Part shown: positions 11,261 to 34,057 of the stretch, one piece after another
Numbering within the stretch: position 1 is the first letter of the stretch
Layout: each line of letters opens with the position of its first letter
Assembly (NCBI GenBank): GCA_020850635.1
Contig: JADZEH010000032.1
Span: 11,421-75,420, forward strand
Direction: 5' to 3'
DNA: 64,000 nucleotides
DNA from: Candidatus Doudnabacteria bacterium
GTDB lineage: Bacteria > Patescibacteriota > Doudnabacteria > UBA920
The notes under the pieces: model-generated
Told to the model about the DNA's origin: nothing
The model's database searches: none
Seen by the model: only the letters and a program-made list of their open reading frames with translations
Made by a program: the position numbers and the translations under genes

Positions 11261-11366
11261 ATATATTATTTTTTATGACTAGTTTGGCTAGAAAAGCATG
11301 GAAAAAGTTCTTTGTTTTTCTAGCCTTTAATTAGGCGAAAAGCGCATAGCGCTTTATTCTGGTGGA

Positions 11367-13211
11367 TTGGAGGATACTATCGTGAAGTACTTTCTCACGA
11401 TCGTAATCATGATCGCTTGTCTCAGAGTGGACGTTGTTGCTGAGCCGGCATGGCTCCTGTGGGGTGACCCTCAGAACGTTCAGTTCGACGAACAGCGGCA
11501 AGTCTATCTCAACGGCAACACTGCTGTTGAGACGTGGCGATTTCTCACCTCTGATCCAGAACTCCGCAAGGAGTTGCTGAAACCAGAGGAAGTTCCGGTA
11601 CAGAAGACGTTCGTGCTCGTGTTCAGGTGTCCGAAAGGACTCAAGCCCGAAGACTGTTACGCTGCGATCTTCGCGGGGACGCAGTCCAGAAAGAATCGGT
11701 TTGTCTTGATCAACGTCGAGCAAACCGCGAATTACGAACGACAGTATCGCGTATGGCCACACCTCGGCGTGCTCTACGTCGGGACCGCTGTTCATCAGCA
11801 GGGGTGGGACGTGGTACTGTGGGACGAACTCGTTCAAGGCCACGTTTCGCTTGAGGAGCTCGTAGAGCCGGGCGATATTGTCGGCCTGAGTCTCGTTGTC
11901 ACGGGAATCGAACGTGGTCTTGAGTTGGCGCGACAAGCGAAGAGTTTGGGCGCTCGATATGTGATCGCGGGTAACGACTCGGCGATCTTCAGATCGAACC
12001 AGATCCTTCGACTGCCGGGTAAGCCGATTGACGTGGTGTTCACTTCCAACAGTCTCACGGCCGTGCGCCGGTTCTTTCGTGCAATCGAGTACGGAGAAAT
12101 CGGCAGCGTCAGTATCTCTGACGTAGAGACTGAGCCAATTGCCGTCCAACGTTCGAACGAACGCCAGCAGTTGTATGTCGAGATTGGGCAGCGAAATGGG
12201 CAGAGACGAGACGGGACGTTCGATAACGACGACGTCTTCGTCGTTCCACAGTTCGATCTGTTTCCTGCGAGCTACTGGAATGAGGTTTGGTCGAACTACC
12301 GCGAGGTCTTCGGACACAAGCATTCCAATCCGGAAACCGTAAAAAACGCGATCGCCTTGTTCGCTCAAGGGTGTACTCGGACGAAAGGCAAGGATGCCTG
12401 TACCTACTGCAGTATTGCAGGGGTCGCAGACGTCCGCGTTCCTTCCGAGCAGTATCTTCGAGCGACGGTGGAAGCCTATCAACGTTTTGGCATTGATGCG
12501 GTGTTTAACACCACAGACTCTGCCTACGAAATGAAGAAGGTCGTCGATCAACTTCAGAACGTTGGGGCGCGCTTCAAGGCCCTGACTATCTACGGTCGGG
12601 CTCAGGGGATTACGGAGAAGCCGGAATTGTTGGACGAGTGGCAGAAGGTCGTCAACGATCGACTGCTCATAAACGTCGGTATGGACTCTGGCGATTCGGA
12701 GTCACTCCACGCTGGCATCATCAAGTCGTCACTCAAGACGGGATCGAGAGTCAGTGAGAATCATCTGGCGGTGCGGTATATCGCTGCAAGCGATGCTCAC
12801 CTCCATTACTCTCTGATATTCGGTTCTCCTGGAGAGACGACCGACTCGTGCGAACGAAGCATCGAGTTCTTGGAGTGGTCAACGGCTACGCTTAGGCAGC
12901 AGTTGGACTTGGTTGAGACGGACATCTTCTGGCTCAACTACGGTTCACCGGCAGCCCGCGTGTTCCATGACTACCGCTATGCCCAGGAGCTCGCTGCGCT
13001 AGCGAACAAGTCGATCTCTCGAGAAGAGTGGCGTTCTACCTTCGCTCAGTATGCTGAGGAACTCGTTGTTCCCCCGCAGGCTCAGGAAGGCTGGTTCCGA
13101 CACTTCACACGAATCGACATGGACACGGCGCAGAGCTACAACCGGCGCGCCGCCGAAATCATGGCTCGACACGAAGGAGGGATATCGGGCCGTGCATTCA
13201 AGCCCTCGTAA
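11367..13211 (+). CDS. putative cobalamin (B12)-binding domain / radical-SAM-like enzyme, high-GC foreign-looking gene
   Basis: About 610 aa. The N-terminal segment (VLINVEQTANYERQYRVWPHLGVLYVGTAVHQQGWDVVLWDE) resembles the B12-binding Rossmann module of B12-rSAM proteins. A Cys cluster CTRTKGKDACTYC follows, though it is non-canonical (Cx8Cx2C, not Cx3Cx2C). GC is about 55% against about 37% in the flanks. A GGAGG Shine-Dalgarno lies 8 nt before the in-frame GTG at about 11382. The function is tentative. Confidence 0.65.
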   Translation: MEDTIVKYFLTIVIMIACLRVDVVAEPAWLLWGDPQNVQFDEQRQVYLNGNTAVETWRFLTSDPELRKELLKPEEVPVQKTFVLVFRCPKGLKPEDCYAAIFAGTQSRKNRFVLINVEQTANYERQYRVWPHLGVLYVGTAVHQQGWDVVLWDELVQGHVSLEELVEPGDIVGLSLVVTGIERGLELARQAKSLGARYVIAGNDSAIFRSNQILRLPGKPIDVVFTSNSLTAVRRFFRAIEYGEIGSVSISDVETEPIAVQRSNERQQLYVEIGQRNGQRRDGTFDNDDVFVVPQFDLFPASYWNEVWSNYREVFGHKHSNPETVKNAIALFAQGCTRTKGKDACTYCSIAGVADVRVPSEQYLRATVEAYQRFGIDAVFNTTDSAYEMKKVVDQLQNVGARFKALTIYGRAQGITEKPELLDEWQKVVNDRLLINVGMDSGDSESLHAGIIKSSLKTGSRVSENHLAVRYIAASDAHLHYSLIFGSPGETTDSCERSIEFLEWSTATLRQQLDLVETDIFWLNYGSPAARVFHDYRYAQELAALANKSISREEWRSTFAQYAEELVVPPQAQEGWFRHFTRIDMDTAQSYNRRAAEIMARHEGGISGRAFKPS

Positions 13212-13363: not shown

Positions 13364-13606
13364 TCAGAAGTTTCGATAAGTCTTCTCAGAACGTAAACCT
13401 ACTTGCAGGACTAGTAGTTTATCGTCGTCAATTTTAAAAATTATTCTTAGTTTCCCATGACGTACTCGAAATACATTTTTCTGACCTTTTAGATGTACTA
13501 TGTCTAAGCCCGAATAGTTTCTCGCTAACAATCTAACAATAAGATAATCAAAAGCTGTCTTATATTCTTTTGGTAGTTTTGCGAGAGCTTTTTTTATCTT
13601 GTCCAT
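13364..13606 (-). CDS. type II toxin, RelE/ParE superfamily
   Basis: 80 aa. The pattern LAKLPKEYK..F...I..L......LKG...FRVRHGKLRIIFKIDDDKLLVLQVGLRSEKTY matches RelE/StbE-type mRNA interferases. It sits downstream of a Phd/YefM-like gene. Confidence 0.7.
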   Translation of the reverse strand: MDKIKKALAKLPKEYKTAFDYLIVRLLARNYSGLDIVHLKGQKNVFRVRHGKLRIIFKIDDDKLLVLQVGLRSEKTYRNF

Positions 13607-13823
13607 TTCGTAGAGCGTTAGCTATGTCTTCTACAGGAATACCATCTTTTTTGATTTCTGTAAAATCGATGATAGTTTTCCAGTTTAGTTCGTCGCTAAT
13701 AGGGGATATTCTAAACAATGGCTTAGATTTTTTGAGCACTATAAATGACTGACCAGAATTAACTTTTTTGGTCACAGCTTCAACGTTTTCTCTAAATTCT
13801 TTTAATCCAATGAGTTTTTCCAT
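13560..13823 (-). CDS. type II antitoxin, Phd/YefM family
   Basis: 87 aa. The N-terminus LKEFRENVEAVTKKVNSGQSFIVLKKSKPLFRISP is typical of Phd/YefM antitoxins. Its 3' end overlaps the toxin ORF by 47 nt. Confidence 0.7.
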   Translation of the reverse strand: MEKLIGLKEFRENVEAVTKKVNSGQSFIVLKKSKPLFRISPISDELNWKTIIDFTEIKKDGIPVEDIANALRNGQDKKSSRKTTKRI

Positions 13824-13972: not shown

Positions 13973-16900
13973 ATGAAAAGGACTCAATACCTTGGTTTGC
14001 GCAGGTTAGTAGTTAGTTTCCTAGTATTTTTGGTTATTGTAATGCCTTTAAGGCCAGTATTCGCTCAGGAAGTGGAAGCATCTGTTCCTGTGACCACAGA
14101 ACCCGTTCAGCAAGAACCTCAGGCGATTAGTGAGCCTGAGCCAACTTCTATGGCAGATGAAACTCCTATCCCAACTGAGCAAGCAGACGAATTAGGCACA
14201 GATAAAACCGAGGCTCCTATTGGAGACGAAGATCCTGTGTCAGAAGAAGCTGTGGTTAAAGAAGATGAACCAAAGCCGGAAGAAGAAGTCGCTAAAATCT
14301 TTGGAGGTACCCAGGGTGTTGGATTACAATTTAAAATTCCTTCTGAACCTCAAAACTCTGTTGATGAATCAACGGGAGCTTTGATTTATGAGTATCCAAT
14401 AGTGATGCCAGAGGGTCGTTTAGGTATGACCCCAGCGGTGTCATTAAAATATAATTCTCAGAATATTACCAAGGTAGATTCGATCGTTGGATTAGGCTGG
14501 GAGCTGACTATTCCTTACATTCAACGTGAACGTGCTAAGGGAGTAGAAGGTATTTATACAAAAGCTAATTTCGTAACGTCTTTTTCGGGGAATCTTGTCC
14601 CCACAACAGATATTAGTTCTAGCCCGTACACCGTGTATTATTCTGAGGTTGACGATGGAAGCTTTCAAAAGCACACATTCAATTCTGATAATACATGGAC
14701 AATGACAGATAAATCTGGAAGGGTTTATACTTTTGGCGCCACAGCTGCCTCACGGCAGGATAACCCTGTTGATACTAGTCAGGTTTATAAGTGGATGATC
14801 TCCAAGATTAGTGATGTTCATGGTAATGAGATTCAGTATTCTTACACAAAGGACAATGGCCAAATTTATCCCAGTCAAATAGTCTATACATATCATTCCA
14901 CTTCACCAGCTATTCACAACGTCTCGTTTACTTATAATTCTCCAAGTAGTTACGGAGCCACTACATATAATGCGGCTTTCCCAGTTGTTACTAGTAAGGT
15001 TTTGGCTACGATTGATGTCACTACAACGGCTATTAATGGTGTTAGTACAAACAGTTATTCTTTGGTAAATACCAATGCCCAATTTATTAAGCAAAAATTA
15101 GTTACACGCATTGACAGAAGCTACACAAGTACTATCACCGAATCAGTTCCATATAGTGAATCTACTAGTTTTTCTTACTCAACTAAAACTCCAGGGTGGC
15201 AGCAAGGTACTCATTCCTTAGAAGGGTATTTAGTAAGAAATTCAGATTATATTTACAAAGATATTTTTACTGCTGATTTTGATGCCAATGGGTTTACTGA
15301 TGTGTTAATTTCTCATCACGATATTCCCAGTCAAAAATATAATAGATTGATGATGAACAATGGCTCAACTTTCACTGAGTCTAGCTCCGCATGGTCTTTG
15401 CCCACACACGATTTGAGTTCAAATGCATTTATTGCAGATATTAATGGAGATAAGTACCCAGATTTATTACCTAGGCAGTCTGATCCAAACCCTGTTTATT
15501 TAAATACAGGAAGTGGTTTTTCCGTTGATAATTCAAATAATTGGAAAATTTCGACATATGTGCCTGAGGCGCTTATTTGTGGTGCCAATGTCGGTGATTC
15601 AAATTCATTTGATACCAATTCTTTCTTACATGATATTAATGAAGATGGAAAAAACGACATCGTATTCTTTGGGGGAAGTTCCGACTTCAGGGTTTTTCTA
15701 AATAATGGAAACGGTTTTACTCTCTCAAATAACTACACCTTTACTCCACAATCAGGAGCTAATTTTACTATCCCCACGGTGTGTACCGGGGATTTAGATG
15801 CGGACGGCTATCAGACATTGATAGATGTCAATAACGACGGATTAAAAGATTACTTCCATGTAACCCATGGTACTTACTTAAATACTGGTTCTGGCTTTGC
15901 TTACGCAGCATCTTACCAGATTGATACCGCGGAGATGGATCGGACTGGTTTGGGGGATGTGAATGGTGACGGATTATTAGATTATATAGGTTTTAAATGG
16001 ACAAGCGGGGGAAATTATTGCGCTCGCTTGTTATTTAATGATGGAAATGGTTTTAAACAAATCAACCCCACAAACTATCCAACAAATTGCGACAATTCCG
16101 GTGTTTGGGATTTTTCAAATCTTAGCTACACCGGGGGAAATTCCAGTTTTTTCGGTACTTTAATGGATCTCACCGCGGACGGTTTACCAGATATCGTTGG
16201 TAGATTCTCTTCTTATGATATAAGGGGAAAAGTAAGGGCTGTTAATGACGGGGTGAGTTCCTGGGTTAATAATTCAAATGCTGGAGATCAATGGGTTGAT
16301 GTTATAGCGCCCTCTTATGGAAAATATTTTGATATTAACTCTGATGGAGTATTGGATTTTATTACACCATTAACTAGTTGGGGTTATGGTACTATGCCTG
16401 CCTCGATGACGTATATGGGTAAGCCAAGTATCCCAAACAGACTTACTCAGATTACCAATAGACTTGGAGCTCAGACAGTTGTCGATTTTGATACTGCCCC
16501 CACAGATCTTTATGATCGAGATAGTGCGCCAATGCCTGTAGTAAAGAAAATTACGACTCAGAATCTTGGTAGTGGGCAACCTGATATGGTAACCCAGTAT
16601 GATTATGAAAAAGGTCATTACTCTACCAATCCACTTACTAGCCAAGTAAAATTTGCGGGATTCAGCAAAGTTACCGCCACTGAATCCGGAATTGATTTAA
16701 CACCTCTTCGTGTTACAGATACATATTTTCATCAAGGTGACAATTCTGATTCTGGAAATAGCGAATATCAAGATCACATCTCAAAAATTGGTAAAGCTTA
16801 CAGAATTGAGATAAAAGATGGAAGCGGAAATCTATATTCTAAAACCCTGAATACATGGGAGCATGATCAAATATATGAGGGTCGTGATTTTGTTAAGCTT

Positions 16901-19900
16901 GCTCAAACAATGGAATTTAGTTTTGATGGTAATACAAATCACAGAGATAAAGCTGTGAGTTATGAATATGATAACTTTCTTGGAAATACTACTAAGCGGA
17001 TAGATTGGGGTGAGGTTACTGGTTCAGCGGATGGGACGTTTACTGATGTAGGTAACGACAAAATAGTTACTGATTTAATATATGCCACTGGTAGTTCCCA
17101 CGACGTAGTAGAGATGATTTCCTCCGAAATATCTACCGACCAGTCTCTAAACAAAGTAAGCGAGACTCATTATTACTATGATAATTTGTCTCTAGGTTCG
17201 ATTGATAAAGGAAATGAAACAAAAGTAGAAAAGTGGAAATCTGGCTCTGATTATATTAACGAACAGAAGGCATATAACTCTCTTGGATTAGTAACGCAAA
17301 CAACTGATCCAAGAGGAAAGAATTTAGTTTATGCATATGATAGTCATAACCTGTTTCCAGCAACGGTTACAAATCATTTAAGTCAGGCAACGCAGTATCA
17401 ATACCATTATTTCTTTGGTAAGCCACTTCAAGTGACCGATGTAAATAACAGGGTATTTAAAACGCTTTATGATGGCGCGGGTCGTATAATTGAGCAAAGA
17501 GAGCCAGATTTAAGCAACCCTACAGCGTTGGTTTCTAAATTTGTAAACACTTATTCAACTTTTGCAGGTGGAGAATTGACACGTCATGTTGAGTACATGA
17601 GTGCTTCTGAATACATAGATTCGTATACTTACTCTGATGCCTTGGGACGTGAAGTTCAGCAACGACTAGCTACCGAAGATAGTGGTAACTATAGAGTAAA
17701 CGATAAAGCTTATGATGCGTTGGGACGTCTGCAAAAAGAGTCATCGCAGTATTTTTCATCCGGAGATGCTAAGACTGTAGCGACAACGACAACTAATCTT
17801 TACACAACCACCTCATATGATCCTCTTGATCGCGTTACTGCAATTGCCAATAATATTGGGATCATAACCAACACTTTCGATGATTGGACTACCACAGTAA
17901 CAGATGCAAGGGGTAAGGTTAAGGTTTTGTACAACGATGCTCGCGGTAATTTAGTTAAAGTTGATGAAAGTAATTCAGGTGCTGTATATACTACTAATTA
18001 CGAATACAATTCAAATAATAATCTTGTTAAAATCACAGATGCTTTGGGTAACGTCCGTAACTTTACCTATGATGCCTTAGGACGTCGTTTAACTGCTCAG
18101 GATTTACATGCCCCGACTGATGTTACTTTTGGTACTTGGACCTACACTTATGATAACAACGGTAATATTACGTCTGTTGTCGATCCTAATAATCAAACCA
18201 TTAATTATACCTACGACGATTTAGGTCGCCTACTTACAGAAGATTTTACTGGTCAGTCGGAAACAGAACTAACTTATACTTATGATTCAGGTACGGATGG
18301 TATGGGTCGGTTGTCTTCTGTAGTTTCTCCCGGAGCTAATACTAGTTACTTATACAACGCACATGGTGGCGTTAAGCAGGAGATAAAAACCATAAATTCC
18401 ACTTCGTATCAGACAGACTATACTTATGATCGTCAGGGAAATCAGCTAGAGATTACTAACCCAGATGGGTCGAAAGTTAAGTATACCTATAATTTCGGAG
18501 GACAACTGGAAACGGTGCAACGTAAAGAAACTACAGATACTTCATTTATAAATGTTGTAAATGATTTTGATTATGGTCCTCATGGAAAAATCACCCTTCA
18601 AGTAAACCAAAATGGTTCTCAAACCAGCAACATTTATGACGCTACTAAGCTTTATCGGCTATCCTCTAAAATAACTACTATTAGTGGCGGTTCTAAGGTG
18701 CAAGGACTTACATATAGTTATGATAATAATAGTAATATTACTCAGGCCGTAGATAATTCAAATACTAATTCAGTAAAAACTGTTGCATATACCTATGATG
18801 ATTTAAACCGGTTACTTAGTTCAACAGCAACAGGGGTTGCTGCTGGTCAGTCGACTTATACCGAAGTTTATAGTTACGATGCTATTGGAAACATTCTGAC
18901 TAAAGCTACTACCGTTGGGGGAGGGGCTACGATAAATACCACGTATTCTTATGCAGGAAGTGCAGGGTCAAGTTATGCAAATCCTCACGCAGTTACTAGT
19001 ATTTCCGATGGAATAAATACTACCAACTTTACGTATGACAATAATGGTAATATGATTGGAGAAGGAAGTAAGACCTTTGCGTTTGATTATAATAATCGTA
19101 TGACGCAGTCAGTTGGCGTAAGTGGTAGTGGTCCGACAACCGTTAGTTTTAATTCTCTAGCTGGCGATGGTGCTATTTATCATCAAAGTTCTTCTTGGGA
19201 TACCGCTCACGATGCTTCGGTGGGTTCGTATGCGTCGTTTACTGTTAATAATTTTTACGTTAGAGCTGGTAAGAATACAAGCACTTCAAATCGTATTGAG
19301 CGTGGGTTCTTACCTTTCGACACATCTTCGTTGCCAGACAGTGCAAATATTACGAGCGCAAAACTTAAAGTCTATGTTTATTCTAAATTGAATAATGATA
19401 ATGACGGTACAGATTGGGTAACTGTGACTCAAGCCACTCAACCCAGTACAACCGTTCTAACAACAGGGGACTACGATTTAGCAGGAAGTATAAATAATCC
19501 GGTTGAAGGGGTTGATGCAGGGCAGCGTAAAGATATTACCAATGTAAGTGTAGGTGGTTACTTAACCTTTGATCTAAATGTAACCGGCCGAGGTTGGGTA
19601 AACACCAGTGGTTCGACAAAGCTTAGTTTGCGTGAAGGCCATGACGCTACAGATAGCGCTTTTGTGGGAACTTCTGGTCAGTATAACGAGCTACGTATTA
19701 TATCATCAGAATATACGGGAACCAGCGTTGATCCAATTTTGGAAGTTACTTATGGCAGTGCCCCTCAGGTCGTTACAACAAATTATAAGTATGATCACAC
19801 TGGCCAGAGAGTTAGCTTATCCAATGGTACGAAAACGGATGTTTATCCGTCAGCTGACTACAATACGGACGGAACGACACCTGTAAAGCACATTTTTGGT

Positions 19901-20911
19901 GCTGGTCAGACCGTAGCTACAATAAAGGGTTCTGGTGTTGGCGCCACTGCGTACTTAGTTCACACTGATCACCTCACTGGGTCTAGTGCTGTAACTAACA
20001 GCGGCGGTACGCTTGAAGAATTGATGGATTACTTCCCATTTGGGAATATTCGTCTCGACCAAAAAGTAGGAAGTTTTGATGAACAGCGTAAATACACGGG
20101 GCATGAGTATGACGTGGATACCGGACTTTCCTATATGGAAGCGAGGTATTATAATCCAAATATCGGAAGATTCCTTAGCCAAGATCCGGTCTTTCTTGCT
20201 TTGGGAAATGAAGAGGGAGTACAACAGAAAACCCAACAAGAATTACAAGAAATATTATCTGATCCTCAGTTATTGAATAGTTATTCTTACGCACGAAATA
20301 ATCCGTTAGCCTACATTGACGAAAACGGAGAGTGGCCATCTTGGAGTCAAATCAAAACTGGCTTCCAGACAGCATGGAATGTAGCCAAGCCGTTTGTACA
20401 GAACAAGATCAACCAAGTACAAAACTCTTGGAACTCATACAATGCTTATATGGACACTCCCGAGGCGCAGCAGAAGTCTCGAGATGCAGCAATGGGTGGT
20501 ATGGCTTACCTTGGACCTATTGGCGGAACTGATAGATACTTTGGATTCGGAGTAGGAAGTATTAATTCTGTAGGTAGTGGCGTGAACCTAACGTCCAGAG
20601 GAGCACTCCATATACAGAAGGGTCATACTTTATCTGGCCAAGCGCCGGGTAATAATAAAAGTTACTTCTTTAATGATGTTGATTATAAAGGTATAATAAC
20701 TAAGTATGGCAATCAAGCTAAGGGTGCAATTCAGGGCAATGGCAATGTGCAAAGAATTCTTGATATGGGCCGTCCAGTAGGATGGGATGCTACTACCGGT
20801 GGAGCAACTTCATTTATGACTATTATTACCGATAAAGCAGGTACTGTAATTACAAGCCATCCTGGCTTACCAACAACAATCAAAGCTATAGTTAAAACCA
20901 TTAAAAAGTAG
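13973..20911 (+). CDS. RHS/YD-repeat polymorphic toxin (TcB/TcC-like), 2312 aa, secreted
   Basis: Signal peptide, then an acidic Pro/Glu-rich linker. An SpvB-like N-domain follows (YEYPIVMPEGRLGMTPAVSLKYNSQ). Several FG-GAP/VCBS-like Asp-rich repeats come next (DINGDKYPDLL, DINEDGKNDIVF, DLDADGY..DVNNDGLKDY, DVNGDGLLDY). A long YD-repeat shell contains many YxYDxxGRL units (YTYDDLGRLL, YDALGRL, YTYDDLNRLL). A non-YD domain of about 170 aa is inserted at about aa 1640-1800 (...YNELRIISSEY..., DNRLRE-like). The RHS core is YTGHEYDVDTGLSYMEARYYNPNIGRFLSQDPV...YSYARNNPLAYIDENGE. A C-terminal extension of about 190 aa, Cys-free, is of unknown family. Confidence 0.9.
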   Translation: MKRTQYLGLRRLVVSFLVFLVIVMPLRPVFAQEVEASVPVTTEPVQQEPQAISEPEPTSMADETPIPTEQADELGTDKTEAPIGDEDPVSEEAVVKEDEPKPEEEVAKIFGGTQGVGLQFKIPSEPQNSVDESTGALIYEYPIVMPEGRLGMTPAVSLKYNSQNITKVDSIVGLGWELTIPYIQRERAKGVEGIYTKANFVTSFSGNLVPTTDISSSPYTVYYSEVDDGSFQKHTFNSDNTWTMTDKSGRVYTFGATAASRQDNPVDTSQVYKWMISKISDVHGNEIQYSYTKDNGQIYPSQIVYTYHSTSPAIHNVSFTYNSPSSYGATTYNAAFPVVTSKVLATIDVTTTAINGVSTNSYSLVNTNAQFIKQKLVTRIDRSYTSTITESVPYSESTSFSYSTKTPGWQQGTHSLEGYLVRNSDYIYKDIFTADFDANGFTDVLISHHDIPSQKYNRLMMNNGSTFTESSSAWSLPTHDLSSNAFIADINGDKYPDLLPRQSDPNPVYLNTGSGFSVDNSNNWKISTYVPEALICGANVGDSNSFDTNSFLHDINEDGKNDIVFFGGSSDFRVFLNNGNGFTLSNNYTFTPQSGANFTIPTVCTGDLDADGYQTLIDVNNDGLKDYFHVTHGTYLNTGSGFAYAASYQIDTAEMDRTGLGDVNGDGLLDYIGFKWTSGGNYCARLLFNDGNGFKQINPTNYPTNCDNSGVWDFSNLSYTGGNSSFFGTLMDLTADGLPDIVGRFSSYDIRGKVRAVNDGVSSWVNNSNAGDQWVDVIAPSYGKYFDINSDGVLDFITPLTSWGYGTMPASMTYMGKPSIPNRLTQITNRLGAQTVVDFDTAPTDLYDRDSAPMPVVKKITTQNLGSGQPDMVTQYDYEKGHYSTNPLTSQVKFAGFSKVTATESGIDLTPLRVTDTYFHQGDNSDSGNSEYQDHISKIGKAYRIEIKDGSGNLYSKTLNTWEHDQIYEGRDFVKLAQTMEFSFDGNTNHRDKAVSYEYDNFLGNTTKRIDWGEVTGSADGTFTDVGNDKIVTDLIYATGSSHDVVEMISSEISTDQSLNKVSETHYYYDNLSLGSIDKGNETKVEKWKSGSDYINEQKAYNSLGLVTQTTDPRGKNLVYAYDSHNLFPATVTNHLSQATQYQYHYFFGKPLQVTDVNNRVFKTLYDGAGRIIEQREPDLSNPTALVSKFVNTYSTFAGGELTRHVEYMSASEYIDSYTYSDALGREVQQRLATEDSGNYRVNDKAYDALGRLQKESSQYFSSGDAKTVATTTTNLYTTTSYDPLDRVTAIANNIGIITNTFDDWTTTVTDARGKVKVLYNDARGNLVKVDESNSGAVYTTNYEYNSNNNLVKITDALGNVRNFTYDALGRRLTAQDLHAPTDVTFGTWTYTYDNNGNITSVVDPNNQTINYTYDDLGRLLTEDFTGQSETELTYTYDSGTDGMGRLSSVVSPGANTSYLYNAHGGVKQEIKTINSTSYQTDYTYDRQGNQLEITNPDGSKVKYTYNFGGQLETVQRKETTDTSFINVVNDFDYGPHGKITLQVNQNGSQTSNIYDATKLYRLSSKITTISGGSKVQGLTYSYDNNSNITQAVDNSNTNSVKTVAYTYDDLNRLLSSTATGVAAGQSTYTEVYSYDAIGNILTKATTVGGGATINTTYSYAGSAGSSYANPHAVTSISDGINTTNFTYDNNGNMIGEGSKTFAFDYNNRMTQSVGVSGSGPTTVSFNSLAGDGAIYHQSSSWDTAHDASVGSYASFTVNNFYVRAGKNTSTSNRIERGFLPFDTSSLPDSANITSAKLKVYVYSKLNNDNDGTDWVTVTQATQPSTTVLTTGDYDLAGSINNPVEGVDAGQRKDITNVSVGGYLTFDLNVTGRGWVNTSGSTKLSLREGHDATDSAFVGTSGQYNELRIISSEYTGTSVDPILEVTYGSAPQVVTTNYKYDHTGQRVSLSNGTKTDVYPSADYNTDGTTPVKHIFGAGQTVATIKGSGVGATAYLVHTDHLTGSSAVTNSGGTLEELMDYFPFGNIRLDQKVGSFDEQRKYTGHEYDVDTGLSYMEARYYNPNIGRFLSQDPVFLALGNEEGVQQKTQQELQEILSDPQLLNSYSYARNNPLAYIDENGEWPSWSQIKTGFQTAWNVAKPFVQNKINQVQNSWNSYNAYMDTPEAQQKSRDAAMGGMAYLGPIGGTDRYFGFGVGSINSVGSGVNLTSRGALHIQKGHTLSGQAPGNNKSYFFNDVDYKGIITKYGNQAKGAIQGNGNVQRILDMGRPVGWDATTGGATSFMTIITDKAGTVITSHPGLPTTIKAIVKTIKK

Positions 20912-20914
20912 TAT

Positions 20915-21226
20915 ATGCAACATATAGGAATTGAAATTGATAATGAGACATTTAGCAAAGAAAAAAGTAGTGAGAATAACTTTGCTAAGGTATTAGGGTA
21001 TGTGTGGGAGAATACTCAGAAAGAAGATTATCCGTGGATATGGGGCATAGATGCTTATGGTTTAACAGTATTTAATATTCAGCAAACCCCAAATCTCGTA
21101 AACGAGTTATCAAAACTGAAAGATAAAGTGCAAGAAGAAGATATTAAAGCAGATATTCAAAGTTTAATAGACTTTATTACAGAGAATATGGAGCAGCACT
21201 TATATTTAAAGTTTATTGGAGATTAA
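20915..21226 (+). CDS. putative immunity protein for the RHS C-terminal toxin
   Basis: 103-aa acidic protein. It starts 4 nt after the RHS stop and has no signal peptide. This is the usual position of the cognate immunity gene. Confidence 0.5.
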   Translation: MQHIGIEIDNETFSKEKSSENNFAKVLGYVWENTQKEDYPWIWGIDAYGLTVFNIQQTPNLVNELSKLKDKVQEEDIKADIQSLIDFITENMEQHLYLKFIGD

Positions 21227-21294
21227 TAGATTATAGATTGGTAAAGCAAACCACTCCGCACTATGTGCGGAGTGGTTTGACTCATGCAGAGCTT

Positions 21295-21678
21295 ATGGAT
21301 AAAAAGAAATATGTAATTGATGGAAATAATTTCGACACCTTAGAAGGGTTTTATGATGAGGTAAGTAATGTCTTAATCCCCGGTGCTTCTTGGGGAAGAA
21401 ACTTTGATGCATTTAATGACATATTATATGGTGGATTTGGTACCCCAGATGAAGGCTTTATCCTAATATGGAAAAATGTAAAGAGATCAAAGTCTGACTT
21501 GGGAGATACCGCAACCCTTAAATGGTTAGAAGGAAAATTGCATAATATTCATCCTTCAAATATACCGATATGGAAACAAAGAATAGCTATGCATAAATTA
21601 AGGTACGGCGAAACACTCTTTATGATACTAGTAGATATTATCTTAAACCATGAAGATATAGAGCTGAGATTTCAATAA
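21295..21678 (+). CDS. barstar-like immunity protein (barnase-inhibitor family)
   Basis: The tracked ORF begins at 21238, but a perfect hairpin (CCACTCCGCACTATGTGCGGAGTGG, 21251-21277) occupies its first codons, so the ATG at 21295 (MDKKKYVIDG) is the likely start. The block YVIDGNNFDTLEGFYDEVSNVLIPGASWGRNFDAFNDIL...ILIW parallels the barstar core (INGEQI..ISDLHQTL...LPEYYGENLDALWDCL...LVLEW). Confidence 0.6.
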   Translation: MDKKKYVIDGNNFDTLEGFYDEVSNVLIPGASWGRNFDAFNDILYGGFGTPDEGFILIWKNVKRSKSDLGDTATLKWLEGKLHNIHPSNIPIWKQRIAMHKLRYGETLFMILVDIILNHEDIELRFQ

Positions 21679-21681
21679 ATT

Positions 21682-21715
21682 AAAAACAGCTATCGTGATG
21701 TAATAGCTGTTTTTA
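21682..21715. terminator. bidirectional intrinsic terminator / left edge of the recombinase element
   Basis: AAAAACAGCTAT-CGTGATGTA-ATAGCTGTTTTT hairpin with A and T runs on both sides. It lies between the convergent barstar-like and recombinase genes. Confidence 0.55.
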
Positions 21716-23410
21716 ATTTGATTTTTTGCGGCCCATCCATTTATTCCCTCGTTTTATTTTACCTTCAATTTTGAATTGAATTGCGCTAGCATCAGATGTC
21801 TGATCGGGATCGTCGTATGCTTTTAGTTTTATTGGGATTGAGCCAATTACTTTCACTTCAGTGTTGTTATAAATTACTTCTTTAATGTAATCTTTTAAAA
21901 ATTCACGAGTCTTGTCGCTGTTGTTACAAAGATTTAATCTTGATCTTACTGATTCGCAATATCTTTTTATACTAGCTTCTATAACTTCTTCTTTATGAAG
22001 ACTAGGCACCTGATTAAGCAGCTTTGCTTTATTGACATTGTGATTAGTAAGTTCACTATCATAGCTTAAGCACCTTTTTACATATTCGGCTCTATTAATT
22101 TTACCGCTGGCATATTGATCAATTGTTTGTTTTCTTTTAGTAGCAAGATCAGCTATTCGCTTTCCATTCTCTTTCAGCTTAGATTCAATTTGTTTTCGGT
22201 TTTTCAATTGACCTACATTAGTAGTTAGGCATAACTCTAGTTTGCTCGAGTCAGTCATGCTTTCTTCGATCATATTCATTACGCAAGTGTCTAGTAGCTG
22301 AGTTAGTACCTCGGGATTGTTGCATCTCACCAACCCAGTATTCGCAGTTTGTGAATGCATTCGTTGTAAAGAAATTTGGCTACATCTGTAAGCAGTCTTA
22401 TGAAATATTTTATTTGGATCCGCAACTCTGCGCTTGTCTTTATAAGTCCGGAAGTATGAGGTGAAAAATCTACCACATATTCCGCAGTTAACTAAACCTG
22501 AAAGTAACTGTGTTTGCTTCGGGTTTCTATACTGTTCGCTGTTATATTTAATTCTTGCTTGTACCTTATTAAAAAGTTCCTGCGAGATGATCGCAGGAAC
22601 TTTCACTGGTATCCATTCAGATTTATTTTTGTAAACCTTCTTGCCGTACTTCAGTCCTCTTAGGGGACTATTTGGCTCTTTCACATAAGATCTCGTATTA
22701 TAGTATTTAATTCCGGTATAAGTGTGGTTTTGCAAAATGTTTTTTAGTTTAGAGGTATCCCAAAGTTTTCGACCCATCTTAGTAATAGCACCAATATTTT
22801 CCAGAGTTCGCACTAATTTTGCCCAACTAAATCCAGCAGCGTAGCTTTTGAAAATATATCTAACTGTTTTCGCTTCCTTTTCATTGATTATAAATTTACC
22901 TGGCTGAGTGTCGGTTCTGCGAATATATTCATACCCTAAAGCATTGTAACCGTAGTTTAATGGGATGCCTTGCCGTAGCTTGTGTAGCTTTCCTCGCTGG
23001 CTGCGTTCAATAATTTTAGCTCTTTCTAATTCTGATACTGCACCAAGTACTGTTAAGGTAAACTTGTTCTCAGGGTTATGGATGTAATCTTTGCCATTAA
23101 TTATTATTTGCTTTTTGTATTTGAGTATTTCCGCGATAATTAAGTTTTGGTAAGTAACATCTCTGGCTATGCGATCTGAATTTAAGAAGTAGATAGTATC
23201 AAACAGGGGAGTCTTAAGATCACTGCGTAGCTGATCAAGTGCAGGTCTGTCGATCTTGGCTCCACTATACCCATCGTCAATGTATTCTTTCGTTAACACA
23301 TCGCCACTTTTAGAAACTTGCTTTTTAAGTTCCTCAATTTGGCTTTCAATGGTTCGCTCTTTTTCTTGCAGAGCTGTACTTACTCTGGCATAGATCGCTG
23401 CTTTCTTCAT
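21713..23410 (-). CDS. large serine recombinase (resolvase/invertase catalytic domain + recombinase domain + zinc ribbon)
   Basis: 565 aa. The N-terminus MKKAAIYARVSTALQ carries the catalytic Ser. A long recombinase domain and a Cys-rich ribbon (CGICGRFF...C) follow. It overlaps the upstream paralogue by 4 nt (ATGA). Confidence 0.85.
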   Translation of the reverse strand: MKKAAIYARVSTALQEKERTIESQIEELKKQVSKSGDVLTKEYIDDGYSGAKIDRPALDQLRSDLKTPLFDTIYFLNSDRIARDVTYQNLIIAEILKYKKQIIINGKDYIHNPENKFTLTVLGAVSELERAKIIERSQRGKLHKLRQGIPLNYGYNALGYEYIRRTDTQPGKFIINEKEAKTVRYIFKSYAAGFSWAKLVRTLENIGAITKMGRKLWDTSKLKNILQNHTYTGIKYYNTRSYVKEPNSPLRGLKYGKKVYKNKSEWIPVKVPAIISQELFNKVQARIKYNSEQYRNPKQTQLLSGLVNCGICGRFFTSYFRTYKDKRRVADPNKIFHKTAYRCSQISLQRMHSQTANTGLVRCNNPEVLTQLLDTCVMNMIEESMTDSSKLELCLTTNVGQLKNRKQIESKLKENGKRIADLATKRKQTIDQYASGKINRAEYVKRCLSYDSELTNHNVNKAKLLNQVPSLHKEEVIEASIKRYCESVRSRLNLCNNSDKTREFLKDYIKEVIYNNTEVKVIGSIPIKLKAYDDPDQTSDASAIQFKIEGKIKRGNKWMGRKKSN

Positions 23411-25119
23411 AATTTTTCAATTACTAATTTCCCATATTCCTTCTTTGGAATTTCTTTGCCGTTAATGGTTTGATCATCTGTATTTAATTGCTTCACTCTA
23501 TTCAGTGCTTCTATTCGGTTGATTACTTGTTCAATCTTGAATTCAATTGGAACTGTTTCATCTTTTGAGACTTCAATCGCAATAGCACCTATCAGTTTGA
23601 TTTTGTCATCGGATTTGCCGTTTTTGCGGTATTCCACCTTGGCGATGTAGTCCAGTAAGAATTGTCGTTTAGAATTAAAATCTCCACATCTAGTAAATTG
23701 AGACTTTAAAGTTTTACAGTATTGTTCAGTACTCGCTTTGATAACTTCCGGTTTTTGAAATAGAGGTAGATATTTTAATAATTCAGCTCGCTTAGTTTGC
23801 AGGTTGCCAACTTCTTCATCATAGATAGAGATTCTCTTAACATATTCTTCTCGTTCCAAATCCCCAAAAGAGTAGAGATCAATTATCCGTTCTTTTTGTT
23901 TGCTAACTGTTTTGATTTTACTCTCCACATCTTTAATCTGTTTATCTAGTTTAGATTGATTCTTTTGATTATTGCCTAAGCTAATATAATTTCGGAGCTC
24001 ATTAGGTTTAAGTAATATACTCGTGACCATTTCAACTACCGTTGAATCTAGTACCCTGGTATCAATCTCAGGGTTATGGTTTATGCCTTTAGTTCTGCAT
24101 CGGTATACCGCTTTTTGATATAGCTTAATTCCAGACTTTCTTTCGACTTTGTAATACCTTCGATAGGCGAAGCATCTCAGTTTGCATTTACCGCAGAACA
24201 CTAGATTAGATAGTAGCTGGGTTCGCTGTGCATTTCTAAAACATTCATAGTTATATTTCATCCTTGCTTGCACTTGGTCAAATAATTTCTTTGGTACAAT
24301 TTGCGGTATTTTTATTCCAACCCATTCCGAGCGGTCTCTGTGGATTTTCTTGCCGCGCTTAGTTCTGCGGATTACATTTCCAACCGCATTCGTATCCGTC
24401 ATGGTATTGAAATACTTTGTGCCTGTATAGGTCTCGTTTTGTAGAATGTATTTTAGATGCCCATCACCAAGTTTGTTTCTTTGCTCTTTGGCTAGACCCT
24501 TCGTTTTTAGCTGTCTCGCTAATTCTTTCAGTCCAATATTTCCTTTTGCATACGTTTCAAAAATATACCTTACTATTTTTGCCTCGTGTTCGTTGATTGC
24601 ATAAGAGGGGGAAGAGTCTGTTGTTCTTGGCGTGTATATATAACCATAAATATGACAACCGTTGCTTAACAGATATCCTTGTTTTAATCTGTGCTGCGAT
24701 CCGCGCCTTGTTCTCTCTAACGTTTTAGCTCGCTCCAATTCTGATACCGCACCTAATACCGTGAGTGTGAATTTGTTTTCTGGGTTATTTACATAATCCT
24801 TCCCATTGATAATGATCTGCTTTTTGTAATGCAGAAATTCGCTGATAATAATATTCTGGTAAGTTACATCTCTGGCAATGCGATCAGCATTCAAAATGTA
24901 GATAGTCTGAAATCCCAGAGTTCTAATATCTCTCCTCAGGTCATTCATAGCTGGTCTATCCAGCAAGCATCCGCTGAATCCATCGTCGATGTATTTTTTT
25001 ACCAAAACATCCCCAGAAGCTCTAATTTGCCTTTTAAGCTCCGATATTTGGCTTTCTATAGTTCGCTCCTTCTGCTGGGCATCGGAGCTTACTCTTGCAT
25101 AAAATACTGCTCTTTTCAT
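23407..25119 (-). CDS. large serine recombinase (paralogue of the downstream gene)
   Basis: 570 aa with N-terminus MKRAVFYARVSSDAQ. It is about 60-65% identical to the 21713-23410 product over the first 150 aa (…IARDVTYQN.II.E.L.YKKQIIINGKDY.NPENKFTLTVLGAVSELERAK…). This is a tandem pair reminiscent of CcrA/CcrB-type two-recombinase elements. Confidence 0.85.
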   Translation of the reverse strand: MKRAVFYARVSSDAQQKERTIESQISELKRQIRASGDVLVKKYIDDGFSGCLLDRPAMNDLRRDIRTLGFQTIYILNADRIARDVTYQNIIISEFLHYKKQIIINGKDYVNNPENKFTLTVLGAVSELERAKTLERTRRGSQHRLKQGYLLSNGCHIYGYIYTPRTTDSSPSYAINEHEAKIVRYIFETYAKGNIGLKELARQLKTKGLAKEQRNKLGDGHLKYILQNETYTGTKYFNTMTDTNAVGNVIRRTKRGKKIHRDRSEWVGIKIPQIVPKKLFDQVQARMKYNYECFRNAQRTQLLSNLVFCGKCKLRCFAYRRYYKVERKSGIKLYQKAVYRCRTKGINHNPEIDTRVLDSTVVEMVTSILLKPNELRNYISLGNNQKNQSKLDKQIKDVESKIKTVSKQKERIIDLYSFGDLEREEYVKRISIYDEEVGNLQTKRAELLKYLPLFQKPEVIKASTEQYCKTLKSQFTRCGDFNSKRQFLLDYIAKVEYRKNGKSDDKIKLIGAIAIEVSKDETVPIEFKIEQVINRIEALNRVKQLNTDDQTINGKEIPKKEYGKLVIEKL

Positions 25120-25388
25120 ACCAACATTGATGACGCAGCTTCTTGATCTAGTCTAGGCCAGCTGTTGGTAACTTTCGACTTTACTTTAACTCCAACCCAA
25201 GCTAGGATGGACTGGATTATGCGCCCTAAATATCGTATAATTGCATTAACAACTTAATGCCTAACCCCTCAGGAATGAGGATATGGCGCTAAAACCTATC
25301 ACAGATACTGAACCCTCCGTTCAGCTACTGTGATAGGTCGTATCTGGAAACAGGTACGGGACCGCAAGGTCCATGCTGGCGGGGGGCT

Positions 25389-25997
25389 TTGTGTTTTCTG
25401 CCAGCAAGAAAGCCTATCACAAACATGGACAATCAATCTGCCTCACCAGAGGCAAAACAACCTTCCATTCTATGGAAGCGTATTAAGACTATCGCTAAAG
25501 GTATAGCTATTTTCATAGTCGTACTTATAGTTGCAGCTGTGTGGCAAAGTATGAATCAACCACAGTCACAAACGCAGTCGCAAGGCACGGCTCAACAAGC
25601 AGAAGAACCAAAAGAAGAACAAACTCCTGCTAAAGAACCTCCCGTTGAACCATTCAATATTGAAGTTACCAGTCAGATAGTCAAAAAAGTAGACGGCAAA
25701 TACCGCTACTTCTTTGACATCAGAAACAAAGACACTAAGAACTTTGAGGGAGCAGTGACTATTAATTTGCTAAGAGCAAATAACAGTAGGCTTGGCTCAG
25801 ATACGTTTACTACTACAAGAGCTATTGAACCTAATCTTGGTTTTGCTCAATACATTGAAATTAATTCAGGACCAATGCCGATGTTTGATTCAGAATCAGC
25901 AATTACTAAATTCACATACGAAGTGAAGATAGATAAGAAATCCGTGAAGAGCGGAGAAGGAGTTATTACAGATAAGTTTGAGAACTTAGATTATTAA
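25389..25997 (+). CDS. hypothetical secreted/membrane-anchored protein
   Basis: 202 aa. The likely start is the internal Met (MDNQSAS, about 25431). It has one N-terminal TM helix, then a Gln/Glu/Pro-rich linker and a beta-rich domain. Confidence 0.45.
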   Translation: MCFLPARKPITNMDNQSASPEAKQPSILWKRIKTIAKGIAIFIVVLIVAAVWQSMNQPQSQTQSQGTAQQAEEPKEEQTPAKEPPVEPFNIEVTSQIVKKVDGKYRYFFDIRNKDTKNFEGAVTINLLRANNSRLGSDTFTTTRAIEPNLGFAQYIEINSGPMPMFDSESAITKFTYEVKIDKKSVKSGEGVITDKFENLDY

Positions 25998-26560
25998 ATT
26001 GCATCTTCTTCCGTTTCTAGGCCACCAGACTCTAAATAACCTTTAACTGGTTTATCTGAGTATCTATCTTCATCATCTACATAATCAGGGTGAGTTGTAT
26101 CGTACCTATGAACTACCGCATTTGCAGCTCTAGTGAATAAATCAAAGACATTATCAATTTGCTCTTTAACTTCTTCTGTAACCTCTGGATGTTTGGCCTG
26201 TACCTTGAATTCATTAATCACAGTCCTGCGATCAGAAAATTTTGGATCACGACTCTTAAGCCAAAATATGGCAGCCGTCATATTGCCTTTACTCATTTCC
26301 TCAATGAGTTTTGATTGAGCAAGTTCATTAATAACCATAGAACCTTCACGGACTGCTTCTGTCGCAACTCTATCAAACTCAGCATCTTCCTCGCACCAGC
26401 GATAGTATGTAGACCTAGCTATGCCAACTTTCTTCACTGCTACTTGCACCACAGGCATCTTTAAAAGCACTTCTACTAATTGAAGTTTTTGTTCAGCGAT
26501 ACGCTTGGCAATCTTTTCTAGTTCCTTTTTATTCTTTGGAGTTTTGCTGGTCTTTACCAT
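25994..26560 (-). CDS. HTH DNA-binding protein, possibly a phage terminase small-subunit-like regulator
   Basis: 188 aa with the helix-turn-helix segment VGIARSTYYRWCEED and a charged N-terminus. Its context next to a phage-type methyltransferase suggests phage origin. Confidence 0.45.
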   Translation of the reverse strand: MVKTSKTPKNKKELEKIAKRIAEQKLQLVEVLLKMPVVQVAVKKVGIARSTYYRWCEEDAEFDRVATEAVREGSMVINELAQSKLIEEMSKGNMTAAIFWLKSRDPKFSDRRTVINEFKVQAKHPEVTEEVKEQIDNVFDLFTRAANAVVHRYDTTHPDYVDDEDRYSDKPVKGYLESGGLETEEDAI

Positions 26561-27893
26561 AGTCTTTATCGCTACTGATCTTAACCGCTTTAGAACCAGT
26601 TAACTTTTCCCAGCGTTTGATAATCACTTCAGTGTAAGTGGGAACTTTCTCCATTGTGTAGCAACGGCGAGCCATTTTCTCACAGGCTATGAGTGTACTG
26701 CCAGAGCCGCCATATGGTTCGACTACAAGCCCTCCGCGTTCAGTGAGTACTTTGATGTAGGGAATAAGGATTTCCACTGGTTTAGTACCAAAGATAATAC
26801 CTTGACCAGAAGACTTCTCGTCACTGGCTTTGTATTCAATAAAGTCAGTAGGACAAATCTTTTTACCTTTCTCATAGTTCTCCCAGTGCGGTTTTCCTGA
26901 AATGGCAAATAAAGCTGTTTCGTATTCTTCTTGAAGCAAAGCTTCTTCCTCAGCAGTATTAAGATGGGCATCGCCAGAAGTGCCAACCATAGCAATATCA
27001 TGCTTGTTAAAGAATTTATGTTTAGCTGCAAATCCTTGAGTACGATTGGGCAAGTGCCAGACAATCATGTTTTTCACTTTCCAATACTTTTCCATCTCAG
27101 ACCAAATGGTGCGAAGATTTTTCCAGTTCTCATATACGATGATACTGAAATCTTCTTTGGCGAATTTAGCAATGTTGGTCATCCAAAGCTCGGTGAAGTT
27201 ATCTGGCAATTCATCTGTTTCCATATACCTACGGTCGCGCTTCAAACCAAAGCCACTCTTGTCCTGACCTTTCTTTTTACCTTTCAGGTAATCCAAGATG
27301 TATGGCGGATCTGTTAAACACAAATCTGCTTTCTCGTTGTTCATCAAGCGGAGAAAATCTTTTTCAATGGTAGAGTCGCCGCACATCAGGCGGTGTTTGC
27401 CTAATTGATAAATATCTCCCTTTTGAACTTTCACTTCAGTGATATCCAACTTCTTGAGCTCTTTTTCCAGATCAAAGACTTCTGGATTTTCCTCAACAGC
27501 AAAGATCTCATCAAGTTCCTCGCTGATAAAGCCGATATCGCTCAGTAGCGATTCGTCAAAAGCAGAGAGGAGTTCCAAATCAAACTCACCACGGTTTTTA
27601 TTTAAGCGCAGGTTAAGTTCTTTTTCTTTTGTTTCATCAGGAATATTCAGATACACCACTGGTGCTTCTGTTTTCCCAAGTTCTTTTAATGCCGCAATGC
27701 GCATGTGTCCGCCGATGAGAATGTTCTTGCGGGTTTCTGCACTGTTCACGAGCAGTGCTTCTACTGTACCGAAGCGCTTAATGCTTTCCTTAAGCTGACT
27801 AAGTGCTTCTTTTGACCACTTGCGTGGGTTGTAGGTGGCAGTAATGAGCTCCTCAATTGGCACATACTGCACCTGAAGTTTTTCGTTTTTCAT
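26529..27893 (-). CDS. ParB-like nuclease domain fused to an N6-adenine/N4-cytosine DNA methyltransferase
   Basis: 454 aa. The N-terminal ParB/Srx-like segment is IEELITATYNPRKWSKEALSQLKESIKRFGTVEALLVN. The MTase motif IV is DPPY (LCLTDPPYILDY), and the C-terminal SAM-binding region is EPYGGSGST. This architecture is common in phage and plasmid orphan methyltransferases. Confidence 0.8.
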   Translation of the reverse strand: MKNEKLQVQYVPIEELITATYNPRKWSKEALSQLKESIKRFGTVEALLVNSAETRKNILIGGHMRIAALKELGKTEAPVVYLNIPDETKEKELNLRLNKNRGEFDLELLSAFDESLLSDIGFISEELDEIFAVEENPEVFDLEKELKKLDITEVKVQKGDIYQLGKHRLMCGDSTIEKDFLRLMNNEKADLCLTDPPYILDYLKGKKKGQDKSGFGLKRDRRYMETDELPDNFTELWMTNIAKFAKEDFSIIVYENWKNLRTIWSEMEKYWKVKNMIVWHLPNRTQGFAAKHKFFNKHDIAMVGTSGDAHLNTAEEEALLQEEYETALFAISGKPHWENYEKGKKICPTDFIEYKASDEKSSGQGIIFGTKPVEILIPYIKVLTERGGLVVEPYGGSGSTLIACEKMARRCYTMEKVPTYTEVIIKRWEKLTGSKAVKISSDKDYGKDQQNSKE

Positions 27894-33585: not shown

Positions 33586-33586
33586 T

Positions 33587-33916: not shown

Positions 33917-34057
33917 TGATTGGATATAGTTAACCATAAAACAGGCCGTATGGCCTGTTTTAGTTTGCATCAAATAATAAAAGCCGCCGTGTCTATTTCT
34001 CCCGAGGGAAAATTAGAACACGGCGTTGTTCTGCTTGGTTCCCGAACAGTAGCGGGG

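Follow-up and report, generated by a model that had tools for sequence, protein, structure and literature searches.

The DNA analyzed here (the window) comprises 64,000 nucleotides of contig JADZEH010000032.1 from the Candidatus Doudnabacteria assembly GCA_020850635.1, positions 11,421 to 75,420, and harbors between positions 13973 and 21678 a complete, textbook polymorphic RHS toxin system, that is, a known type of bacterial weapon. A giant RHS gene is followed by two small genes of the immunity type; the features of this cluster are listed below, with window coordinates and, for the parts of the RHS protein, amino acid (aa) positions.

13973..20911 (+): RHS polymorphic toxin gene, 2312 aa (NCBI MCC7356744.1, Candidatus Doudnabacteria, annotated as 'VCBS repeat-containing protein')
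13973..14065 (+), aa 1-31: Sec-type signal peptide from direct reading of the translation, MKRTQYLGLRRLVVSFLVFLVIVMPLRPVFA followed by QE (ending …VMPLRPVFA, then QEVEAS)
14372..14881 (+), aa 134-303: SpvB domain, TcB-like N-terminal region (PF03534; N-terminal matches to the PDB entries of SpvB, 6p0x, and TcdB1, 6l7i)
15230..16372 (+), about aa 420-800: FG-GAP/VCBS repeats (FG-GAP_3; alignment with the relative P0004)
16430..19105 (+), about aa 820-1711: first part of the YD/RHS shell (RHS_repeat, YD_repeat_2x, RHS_core)
19106..19783 (+), aa 1712-1937: inserted beta-sandwich of the DNRLRE/CBM96 type (ortholog comparison, NCBIfam)
19784..20332 (+), aa 1938-2120: last shell strands and RHS-associated core (TIGR03696)
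20333..20581 (+), aa 2121-2203: pre-toxin linker of 83 aa (about 74% identity to relatives with other tips)
20582..20908 (+), aa 2204-2312: toxin domain (family search, profile alignment, AlphaFold2 model)
20915..21226 (+): predicted cognate immunity protein, 103 aa (MCC7356745.1, hypothetical; co-occurrence with the tip)
21247..21279 (+): hairpin between the immunity and barstar genes (perfect core of 14 bp, 17 pairs in the minimum free energy fold)
21295..21678 (+): barstar-family protein, 127 aa (MCC7356746.1; PF01337)

A first-pass annotation of the cluster had described a secreted RHS protein of 2312 aa with SpvB, FG-GAP, YD/RHS and core modules, a C-terminal region of about 190 aa behind the RHS core, and two immunity-type genes downstream, and this outline was borne out. 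The gene is one unbroken frame, and every one of the modules was matched in scans of the protein: in Pfam, SpvB (PF03534, aa 134-303, E 3.5e-18), FG-GAP_3 (PF13517, four stretches, E 7.4e-17) and RHS_repeat (PF05593, seven stretches, E 2.6e-28); in NCBIfam, the YD repeat (TIGR01643, E 1.4e-20), YD_repeat_2x, RHS_core, and the RHS-associated core (TIGR03696, aa 2020-2119, 68.4 bits vs. a cut-off of 32.5). The N-terminus reads by eye as a Sec signal peptide, behind which an acidic, Pro/Glu-rich linker extends to about aa 111. The FG-GAP/VCBS region is predicted to form a beta-propeller as in TcB, and the shell matched PDB sequences of Rhs1 (7q97), RhsP (8h8a), Tse15 and Tse5. The only four cysteines of the protein (536, 604, 683, 706) all lie within the FG-GAP region, so the C-terminal tip is free of cysteine, as had been claimed.

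The succession of SpvB, FG-GAP propeller, RHS shell and core is the architecture of TcB-TcC, which raises the question of whether it might serve as BC subunit in a Tc (ABC) toxin against eukaryotic cells; a TcA-like pentamer, with its gene in another part of the genome, would then be required for delivery. TcdB1 and SpvB were matched weakly at the sequence level in the PDB, and the relative P0130 contains TcdB_toxin_midN, both of which point in this direction. However, TcdB_toxin_midN (PF12256) was not detected in the window protein, and no TcA-like gene was found among the window ORFs (open reading frames) of at least 150 aa, the flanking large ORFs having no or unrelated Pfam matches. Moreover, the protein possesses its own Sec signal, its shell carries its own binding module, and the linked immunity gene, which covaries with the tip (see below), implies danger to producer-like bacteria; a role as Tc subunit is therefore considered highly improbable.

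For comparison, relatives were collected from one genome per GTDB species, using an alignment of aa 1280-1700 as query, and the best 80 of the 149 RHS relatives found were analyzed. In the core of the window protein, both aspartates, D2071 (in GRFLSQDP) and D2116 (in IDENGE, aa 2115-2120), are kept, as are the Gly of the latter motif and the NNP preceding it. IDENGE had been regarded as a degenerate autoproteolysis motif; it is rather a normal variant, because the second position of DxxGx, which is Pro in 37 of 53 survey relatives, is another residue in the remaining 16, and close relatives have DENGE, DQNGE, or DVSGE. Of 36 RHS proteins with the same tip family, about 26 have Pro at this position and the others E, S, Q, V or K, and the last position of the motif is seldom Leu. 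The RHS core presumably cleaves itself after E2120, with D2071 and D2116 as predicted catalytic aspartates.

The region behind the cleavage motif is composed of two parts. A word-indexed homology search with all 192 aa retrieved two proteins only, P0001 and P0002, both of which share aa 2121-2203 with the window protein (61-74% identity) and then diverge into an unrelated C-terminus; P0001 is an orphan RHS C-terminal cassette in another metagenome-assembled genome (MAG). In both of these proteins, the core and linker of the window protein are thus joined to other tips. Since the linker is kept while the C-termini differ, aa 2121-2203 represent a pre-toxin linker, and the toxin proper spans approximately aa 2204-2312. 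An exhaustive HMMER search, for which aa 2195-2312 served as query, uncovered a large family of tips: 448 cluster representatives had E<=1e-3, and 50 of them E<=1e-10. Of the best 150 members, 125 have the match at their extreme C-terminal end, RHS repeats precede the tip in nine of ten mid-size members examined, and the two largest relevant members, P0004 and P0130, have the SpvB/FG-GAP/RHS build of the window protein.

The first-pass annotation had assigned the tip of about 190 aa to no family. Its last ~110 aa do belong to a large RNase family related to Ntox50, MafB2-CT and YxiD-CT (CT, C-terminal toxin domain), and its first ~83 aa are the linker. An NCBIfam scan of the tip family gave nothing relevant, and six of 38 members matched Ntox50 (PF15542) at E<=0.01, the best at 2.2e-5. 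When the tip-family profile was compared with PDB sequences, one structure was found, the MafB2 toxin of Neisseria meningitidis (8HHJ_B, E 1.6e-4). The AlphaFold2 model of the tip, computed from a 38-sequence alignment, is confident (pLDDT 88, pTM 0.79) and has a BECR/RNase-A-like fold, nearest to MafB2-CT and YxiD-CT. MafB2-CT is an RNase-A-like RNase which needs H335, H402 and H409 (PMC9970974), and YxiD-CT, which has an HxVP motif, is a tRNase of the Ntox50 type (PMC12700104). MafB2 cleaves RNA non-specifically, and YxiD depends on metal for its tRNase activity. In the profile alignment, H2218 of the window protein, which is invariant in the 38 aligned tips, falls on the N-terminal catalytic His of MafB2, H335, and K2229-S2230 fall on K346-S347.

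A second conserved His, H2213, is situated five residues N-terminal of H2218. Other conserved residues of the tip are F2232, Q2254, G2257-N2258, R2261, G2270, D2272, T2279, T2283, T2286, T2294, P2297-G2298 and P2300, in addition to K2229-S2230. At the place of HxVP, the window tip has T2294-S-H-P2297, the family consensus being T-A-F-P and the overall pattern T-[AS]-[FH]-P; the Thr precedes the Pro by three residues, which is the spacing of the His in HxVP. A Ser or Thr at that position is a feature of the generic BECR fold, as described by Zhang et al. (PMC3482391), and T2294, as judged from the alignment, corresponds to this ancestral position. Because the match to Ntox50 is sub-threshold and the motif is of the Thr type, we place the tip outside PF15542, in a clade of BECR RNases that is sister to Ntox50. 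The tip would accordingly be expected to act as an RNase. The first-pass annotation had also considered that the tip might match a well-described toxin family with a canonical immunity partner; this holds for the fold and superfamily, which are known, and fails for the rest, as the tip stays below the Pfam cut-off and the immunity protein is without Pfam, NCBIfam or PDB relatives.

The ORF of the 103-aa protein begins after a gap of 3 nt behind the RHS gene. No Pfam, NCBIfam or PDB relative of the protein was found, and the profile of the immunity family, compared with PDB sequences including MafI2 and YxxD, gave nothing below E 1; homologs form nine clusters (65-83% identity) on related metagenomic contigs and have no Pfam domains. 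The context of the gene was compared in four other loci. At L005, a 2061-aa SpvB/FG-GAP/RHS protein with a tip 83% identical to that of the window is followed by a homolog of 103 aa (79% identity). At L002/L019, from a Bryobacteraceae MAG, the 2269-aa RHS protein P0004 (tip 42% identical) is followed by a 97-aa protein (38% identity), which shares W.ID.YG.TVFN and a C-terminal YL+FIGD with the 103-aa protein. The tips at L003 and L004 are 44% identical, and the small ORFs behind them are of similar size or have a similar N-terminal pattern, with weak similarity. At L001 (10001..11381) lies the orphan cassette P0001, in which the same linker is joined to another tip. Its own 94-aa gene comes next, and behind that a copy (75% identity) of the 103-aa gene; this second gene is an orphan immunity gene, which is typical behavior of immunity genes. 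The window tip itself occurs in only three independent surveyed loci, namely the window, L005 and L002/L019. The principal argument for the 103-aa protein as the likely cognate immunity protein, which would neutralize the tip, is the co-variation of tip and small downstream gene across independent loci.

The second downstream ORF was listed from a TTG at 21238 (146 aa, 21238..21678); the real start is the ATG at 21295, which is also that of NCBI, giving 127 aa. The product, named 'barstar family protein' by NCBI, matches PF01337 with 37.8 bits (Pfam cut-off, 23.4) and contains the DxxxD motif as NFDAFND, while comparison with PDB sequences gave nothing meaningful. Conceivably, the tip is inhibited by this protein rather than by the 103-aa protein, or by the two jointly, and the latter would then be an accessory factor or chaperone. 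The barstar match and its DxxxD motif favor such a role, as do the BECR fold of the tip and the listing of Imm-Barstar with barnase-like and Ntox21 BECR RNases in a survey of polymorphic toxins (PMC3482391). On the other hand, L005, L002/L019 and L003 carry a gene for 97-103 aa directly downstream of the RHS gene, without barstar, and the copy of the 103-aa gene at L001 sits as an orphan behind another tip-immunity pair. In addition, the barstar gene is set apart by the hairpin, into which the 60 nt preceding its ATG fold (-29.7 kcal/mol, z -4.7). We consider inhibition by the barstar protein unlikely. Since barnase (PF00545) had no match in the RHS tip or in the tip of the orphan cassette described below, and no barstar gene was seen behind the same tip family at the other loci examined, the gene is probably an orphan or extra immunity gene.

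The shell of the RHS protein is interrupted by a non-YD domain. Alignment with the L005 ortholog, which is 45% identical over aa 7-1711 and 64% over aa 1938-2312 and has a 10-residue loop instead of the insert, defines its boundaries as exactly aa 1712-1937. The first-pass annotation had correctly recognized a DNRLRE-like domain here; it had placed the domain at aa 1640-1800, about 70-140 aa off, and the motif it quoted, YNELRIISSEY, sits near aa 1900. The insert alone (aa 1702-1941) matched the NCBIfam DNRLRE_dom model NF033679 with 41.3 bits (threshold 34, E 1.6e-10), whereas its match to Pfam CBM96 (22.3 bits) is below the threshold of 26; a match to TGF-beta propeptide was also sub-threshold. 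The AlphaFold2 model of the insert, from a 53-sequence alignment, has a pLDDT of 92 and shows the beta-sandwich fold of solved CBM96 modules. Homologs of the insert are mostly stand-alone proteins of 250-420 aa from bacteria of the Candidate Phyla Radiation (CPR). Within RHS proteins, a DNRLRE-type domain was present in 19 of the 80 survey loci, two of which (L046 from Magasanikbacteria, and L058) have two copies.

At the junction that holds the insert in the window protein, 39 of 70 alignable proteins have the 10-aa loop, and the window locus, L009, L016 and L046 have a DNRLRE module of ~226-243 aa. About 25 other proteins contain 140-715 aa of other modules at this site, such as DUF2341 with Laminin_G_3 (twice in L024), Ig-like plus glycine-rich sequence (L066), DUF2341 (L002), or unassigned sequence. 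The insert thus occupies a variable hotspot of the RHS shell. Because L041, L042, L044, L049 and L054 carry DNRLRE elsewhere in the shell and the plain 10-aa loop at the window junction, at least one further insertion site must exist, which makes at least two hotspots. In the mosquito salivary protein SGS1, as seen by cryo-electron microscopy, the Rhs/YD sequence has a carbohydrate-binding module (CBM) and a lectin domain inserted into it, both displayed outside the shell (PMC9935623), and WapA-CT1 of Streptococcus suis has an N-terminal DNRLRE domain (PMC12704120). By analogy, the insert may be an outward-facing, glycan-binding module.

Lectin-like modules that differ between relatives at a hotspot might also suggest that the protein is a surface adhesin or attachment device of an episymbiont, with a vestigial or non-enzymatic tip. 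CPR bacteria live on hosts, and eukaryotic YD-shell proteins such as teneurins and SGS1 function in adhesion or recognition. Against this stand the conservation of the catalytic Asp residues of the core, of the invariant tip His and of other family residues, the polymorphism of the tip among close relatives which keep the linker, and the maintenance of an immunity gene and an orphan cassette. As kept catalytic residues, a polymorphic tip and maintained immunity and orphan genes argue for an active toxin system, an adhesin is very unlikely.

A toxin of this size had been judged unusual for a small, streamlined genome. However, of the best 80 of the 149 relatives (35-70% identity), 62 are from CPR bacteria, 15 from other phyla and three from unnamed lineages, and their longest ORFs, which share the SpvB-like N-terminus, mostly comprise 2000-2800 aa. 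It follows that giant RHS toxins occur regularly in these small genomes. The CPR lineages represented are Saccharibacteria, Staskawicz-, Nomura-, Doudna-, Uhr-, Gracili-, Peregrini-, Magasanik-, Adler-, Ryan-, Harrison-, Lipton- and Komeilibacteria, Paceibacterota, Parcubacteria and the Patescibacteria group. A literature search within one library of papers retrieved none describing RHS toxins in CPR bacteria, Patescibacteria or Doudnabacteria. CPR genomes are minimal, yet 6-8 kb are spent on such a gene, and this SpvB/FG-GAP/RHS lineage is thus a candidate for a part in conflicts of epibionts with hosts or with one another.

The cluster is surrounded by the following features.

13364..13823 (-): ParE-toxin-like ORF (79 aa, E 5e-5) overlapping a Phd/YefM-like ORF (86 aa, E 1.2e-3)
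21677..21719 (no strand): perfect palindrome of 17 bp between the converging barstar and recombinase genes, resembling a bidirectional terminator
21713..25119 (-): two tandem large serine recombinases (Resolvase and Recombinase domains)
25258..25372 (+): LOOT RNA (Rfam RF03000, 83.6 bits vs. a gathering score of 46.4)
25994..26560: HTH_Tnp_1_2 protein, adjoining the ParB_N-methylase gene
26529..27893 (-): ParB_N fused to an N6/N4 DNA methylase
28123..31521 (+), 31521..32114 and 32134..32496: large ORFs of 1132, 197 and 120 aa without Pfam match
32725..33585 (+): orphan RHS C-terminal cassette, core fragment 46% identical to aa 2025-2137, with a canonical DPTGE

The ParE-like and Phd/YefM-like ORFs form a type II toxin-antitoxin pair, which directly precedes the RHS gene; further upstream, an ORF of 614 aa (11367..13211, +) without Pfam match overlaps an ORF of 406 aa on the opposite strand (11331..12551). 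Downstream, the 5' ends of the two recombinase genes are about 70% identical in DNA sequence, and the LOOT RNA, which contains a 20-nt inverted repeat (25294-25338), is divergent from the upstream serine recombinase gene. The ParB_N-methylase and the helix-turn-helix protein are typical mobile-element cargo. The corresponding place behind the immunity gene is taken in L002, the relative from Bryobacteraceae, by a tandem pair of tyrosine recombinases. An array of toxin and orphan genes may have been split by the recombinase block of the window as a mobile element; a search for repeats marking its ends between the RHS cluster and the orphan cassette yielded none that were convincing, and no flanking repeats were found.

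The orphan cassette is located 11 kb downstream of the RHS cluster. It begins just after a stop codon, and homology reaches upstream of the first listed start codon; its core fragment (…MQARYYNSSIGRFISQDP…NNPLALADPTGEF) precedes a different tip of ~215 aa of unknown family, which also ends full-length RHS genes in two Saccharibacteria, L082 and L012 (~50% identity). Membership of the orphan tip in the family of the window tip was considered and rejected on a profile score of about 0 bits. Candidate immunity ORFs of the cassette are 33527..33916 or 33920..34591, neither of which has a Pfam match. A self-similarity search of the window for further copies of the tip, immunity or barstar genes brought up nothing but this core fragment.

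Taken together, the cluster probably encodes a Sec-exported, self-cleaving polymorphic RHS toxin resembling a TcB-TcC fusion, with a CBM on its shell, an RNase tip, and the 103-aa protein as immunity factor. SpvB, the FG-GAP propeller and the YD shell would be built like a fused TcB-TcC around the C-terminal ~190 aa, and the aspartyl autoprotease core (D2071, D2116) would cut after DENGE (2120), releasing the linker of 83 aa together with a BECR/RNase-A-like RNase of ~110 aa. The CBM96/DNRLRE insert would, by analogy, lie on the shell exterior and might bind an acidic polysaccharide of the target cell or of the producer's own envelope. After entry into a recipient, RNA would be degraded by the tip, in which H2213/H2218 and T2294 are likely to be catalytic, and the producer would be shielded by the 103-aa protein encoded directly downstream. 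The barstar gene behind its hairpin and the orphan cassette could then be seen as typical remnants or reserves of the swapping of tips and immunity genes.

Several observations weigh against parts of this account. The tip scored only 16.2-17.4 bits with Ntox50, below the Pfam gathering score of 22.2. The positions aligned with H402 and H409 of MafB2 are Ile/Val, and as these two C-terminal His residues, on which MafB2 toxicity depends, are not conserved, the catalytic mechanism and the substrate may differ from those of MafB2. The immunity candidate at L003 is only 19% identical to the 103-aa protein, which is weak homology, and barstar proteins are inhibitors of some BECR-fold RNases, so that the barstar gene could have a role of its own. 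Within the 64 kb of the window, no TcA-like protein or different partner for translocation was seen, and outward display of the insert is suggested by analogy. Going further, one might speculate that the SpvB/FG-GAP/RHS proteins of CPR bacteria are weapons of episymbionts in the interaction with their hosts, in which an exchangeable lectin-like module, here CBM96/DNRLRE, picks the surface of the host or rival cell, and an exchangeable tip, here the Thr-type relative of Ntox50 RNases, enters it without TcA, type VI (T6SS) or type VII (T7SS) secretion systems. We regard this as rather doubtful; if true, it would be a self-contained, Sec-secreted delivery route of a kind not described before.

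As a known type of system, the locus leaves the understanding of polymorphic toxins unchanged, and what is new is modest: an uncurated, Thr-type family of tips with their immunity proteins, and recurrent exchangeable lectin-like inserts in an RHS lineage which abounds among CPR bacteria. The tip family comprises at least 448 RHS-linked members accompanied by immunity proteins of ~100 aa, has no Pfam or NCBIfam model, and differs in its active-site motif from its nearest characterized relatives, the Ntox50 toxins. Compared with the latter (MafB2-CT, 8HHJ; YxiD-CT of Bacillus subtilis, 9V8I), the window tip scores below the gathering threshold, lacks His residues at the positions of H402 and H409, and has T-[AS]-[FH]-P in place of HxVP as well as the second His, H2213. 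The carriers differ too, Ntox50 domains being attached to MafB-N or to LXG (T7SS) proteins and the window tip to an RHS protein, and the 103-aa protein has no similarity to the immunity proteins MafI2 and YxxD.

With TcB-TcC toxins such as TcdB2-TccC3 and YenB-YenC2, the window protein shares SpvB, the FG-GAP propeller, the YD shell, the two-Asp core and an encapsulated, variable C-terminal toxin. In contrast to them, it is a single Sec-secreted chain with no TcA partner in the window, and it has a linked immunity gene, an RNase tip of the antibacterial type and an extra CBM in the shell. WapA of B. subtilis and WapA-CT1 of S. suis, Sec-dependent RHS toxins of Gram-positive bacteria, resemble it in the signal peptide, the RHS shell, the order of linker, toxin domain and immunity gene, and the presence of orphan cassettes; WapA is without the SpvB/FG-GAP part, which the window protein has. 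Both S. suis WapA-CT1 and the window protein contain a DNRLRE domain, which in the former is N-terminal beside LysM and in the latter is spliced into the shell (PMC12704120).

The insert itself, when compared with the CBM96/DNRLRE modules of an alginate lyase (7VBO) and of a chondroitin-sulfate CBM (8WAB), stays below the Pfam CBM96 score and is not joined to a glycan-degrading enzyme. A structural precedent is provided by SGS1 (8FJP) and SGS4 (9ON3), in which the Rhs/YD shell is likewise interrupted by a CBM and a lectin domain on the outside (PMC9935623), and the core region of the window protein has a weak sequence match to SGS4. The CBM and lectin domain of SGS1 are putative receptor-binding modules (PMC9935623). 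Both SGS proteins are eukaryotic, their cargo consists of transmembrane helices rather than an RNase, they have no immunity gene, and their inserted domains differ in fold and site from that of the window protein. A shell hotspot with swappable lectin-like modules would nevertheless be the bacterial counterpart of what cryo-electron microscopy revealed in SGS1, and a possible handle for the retargeting of RHS cocoons.

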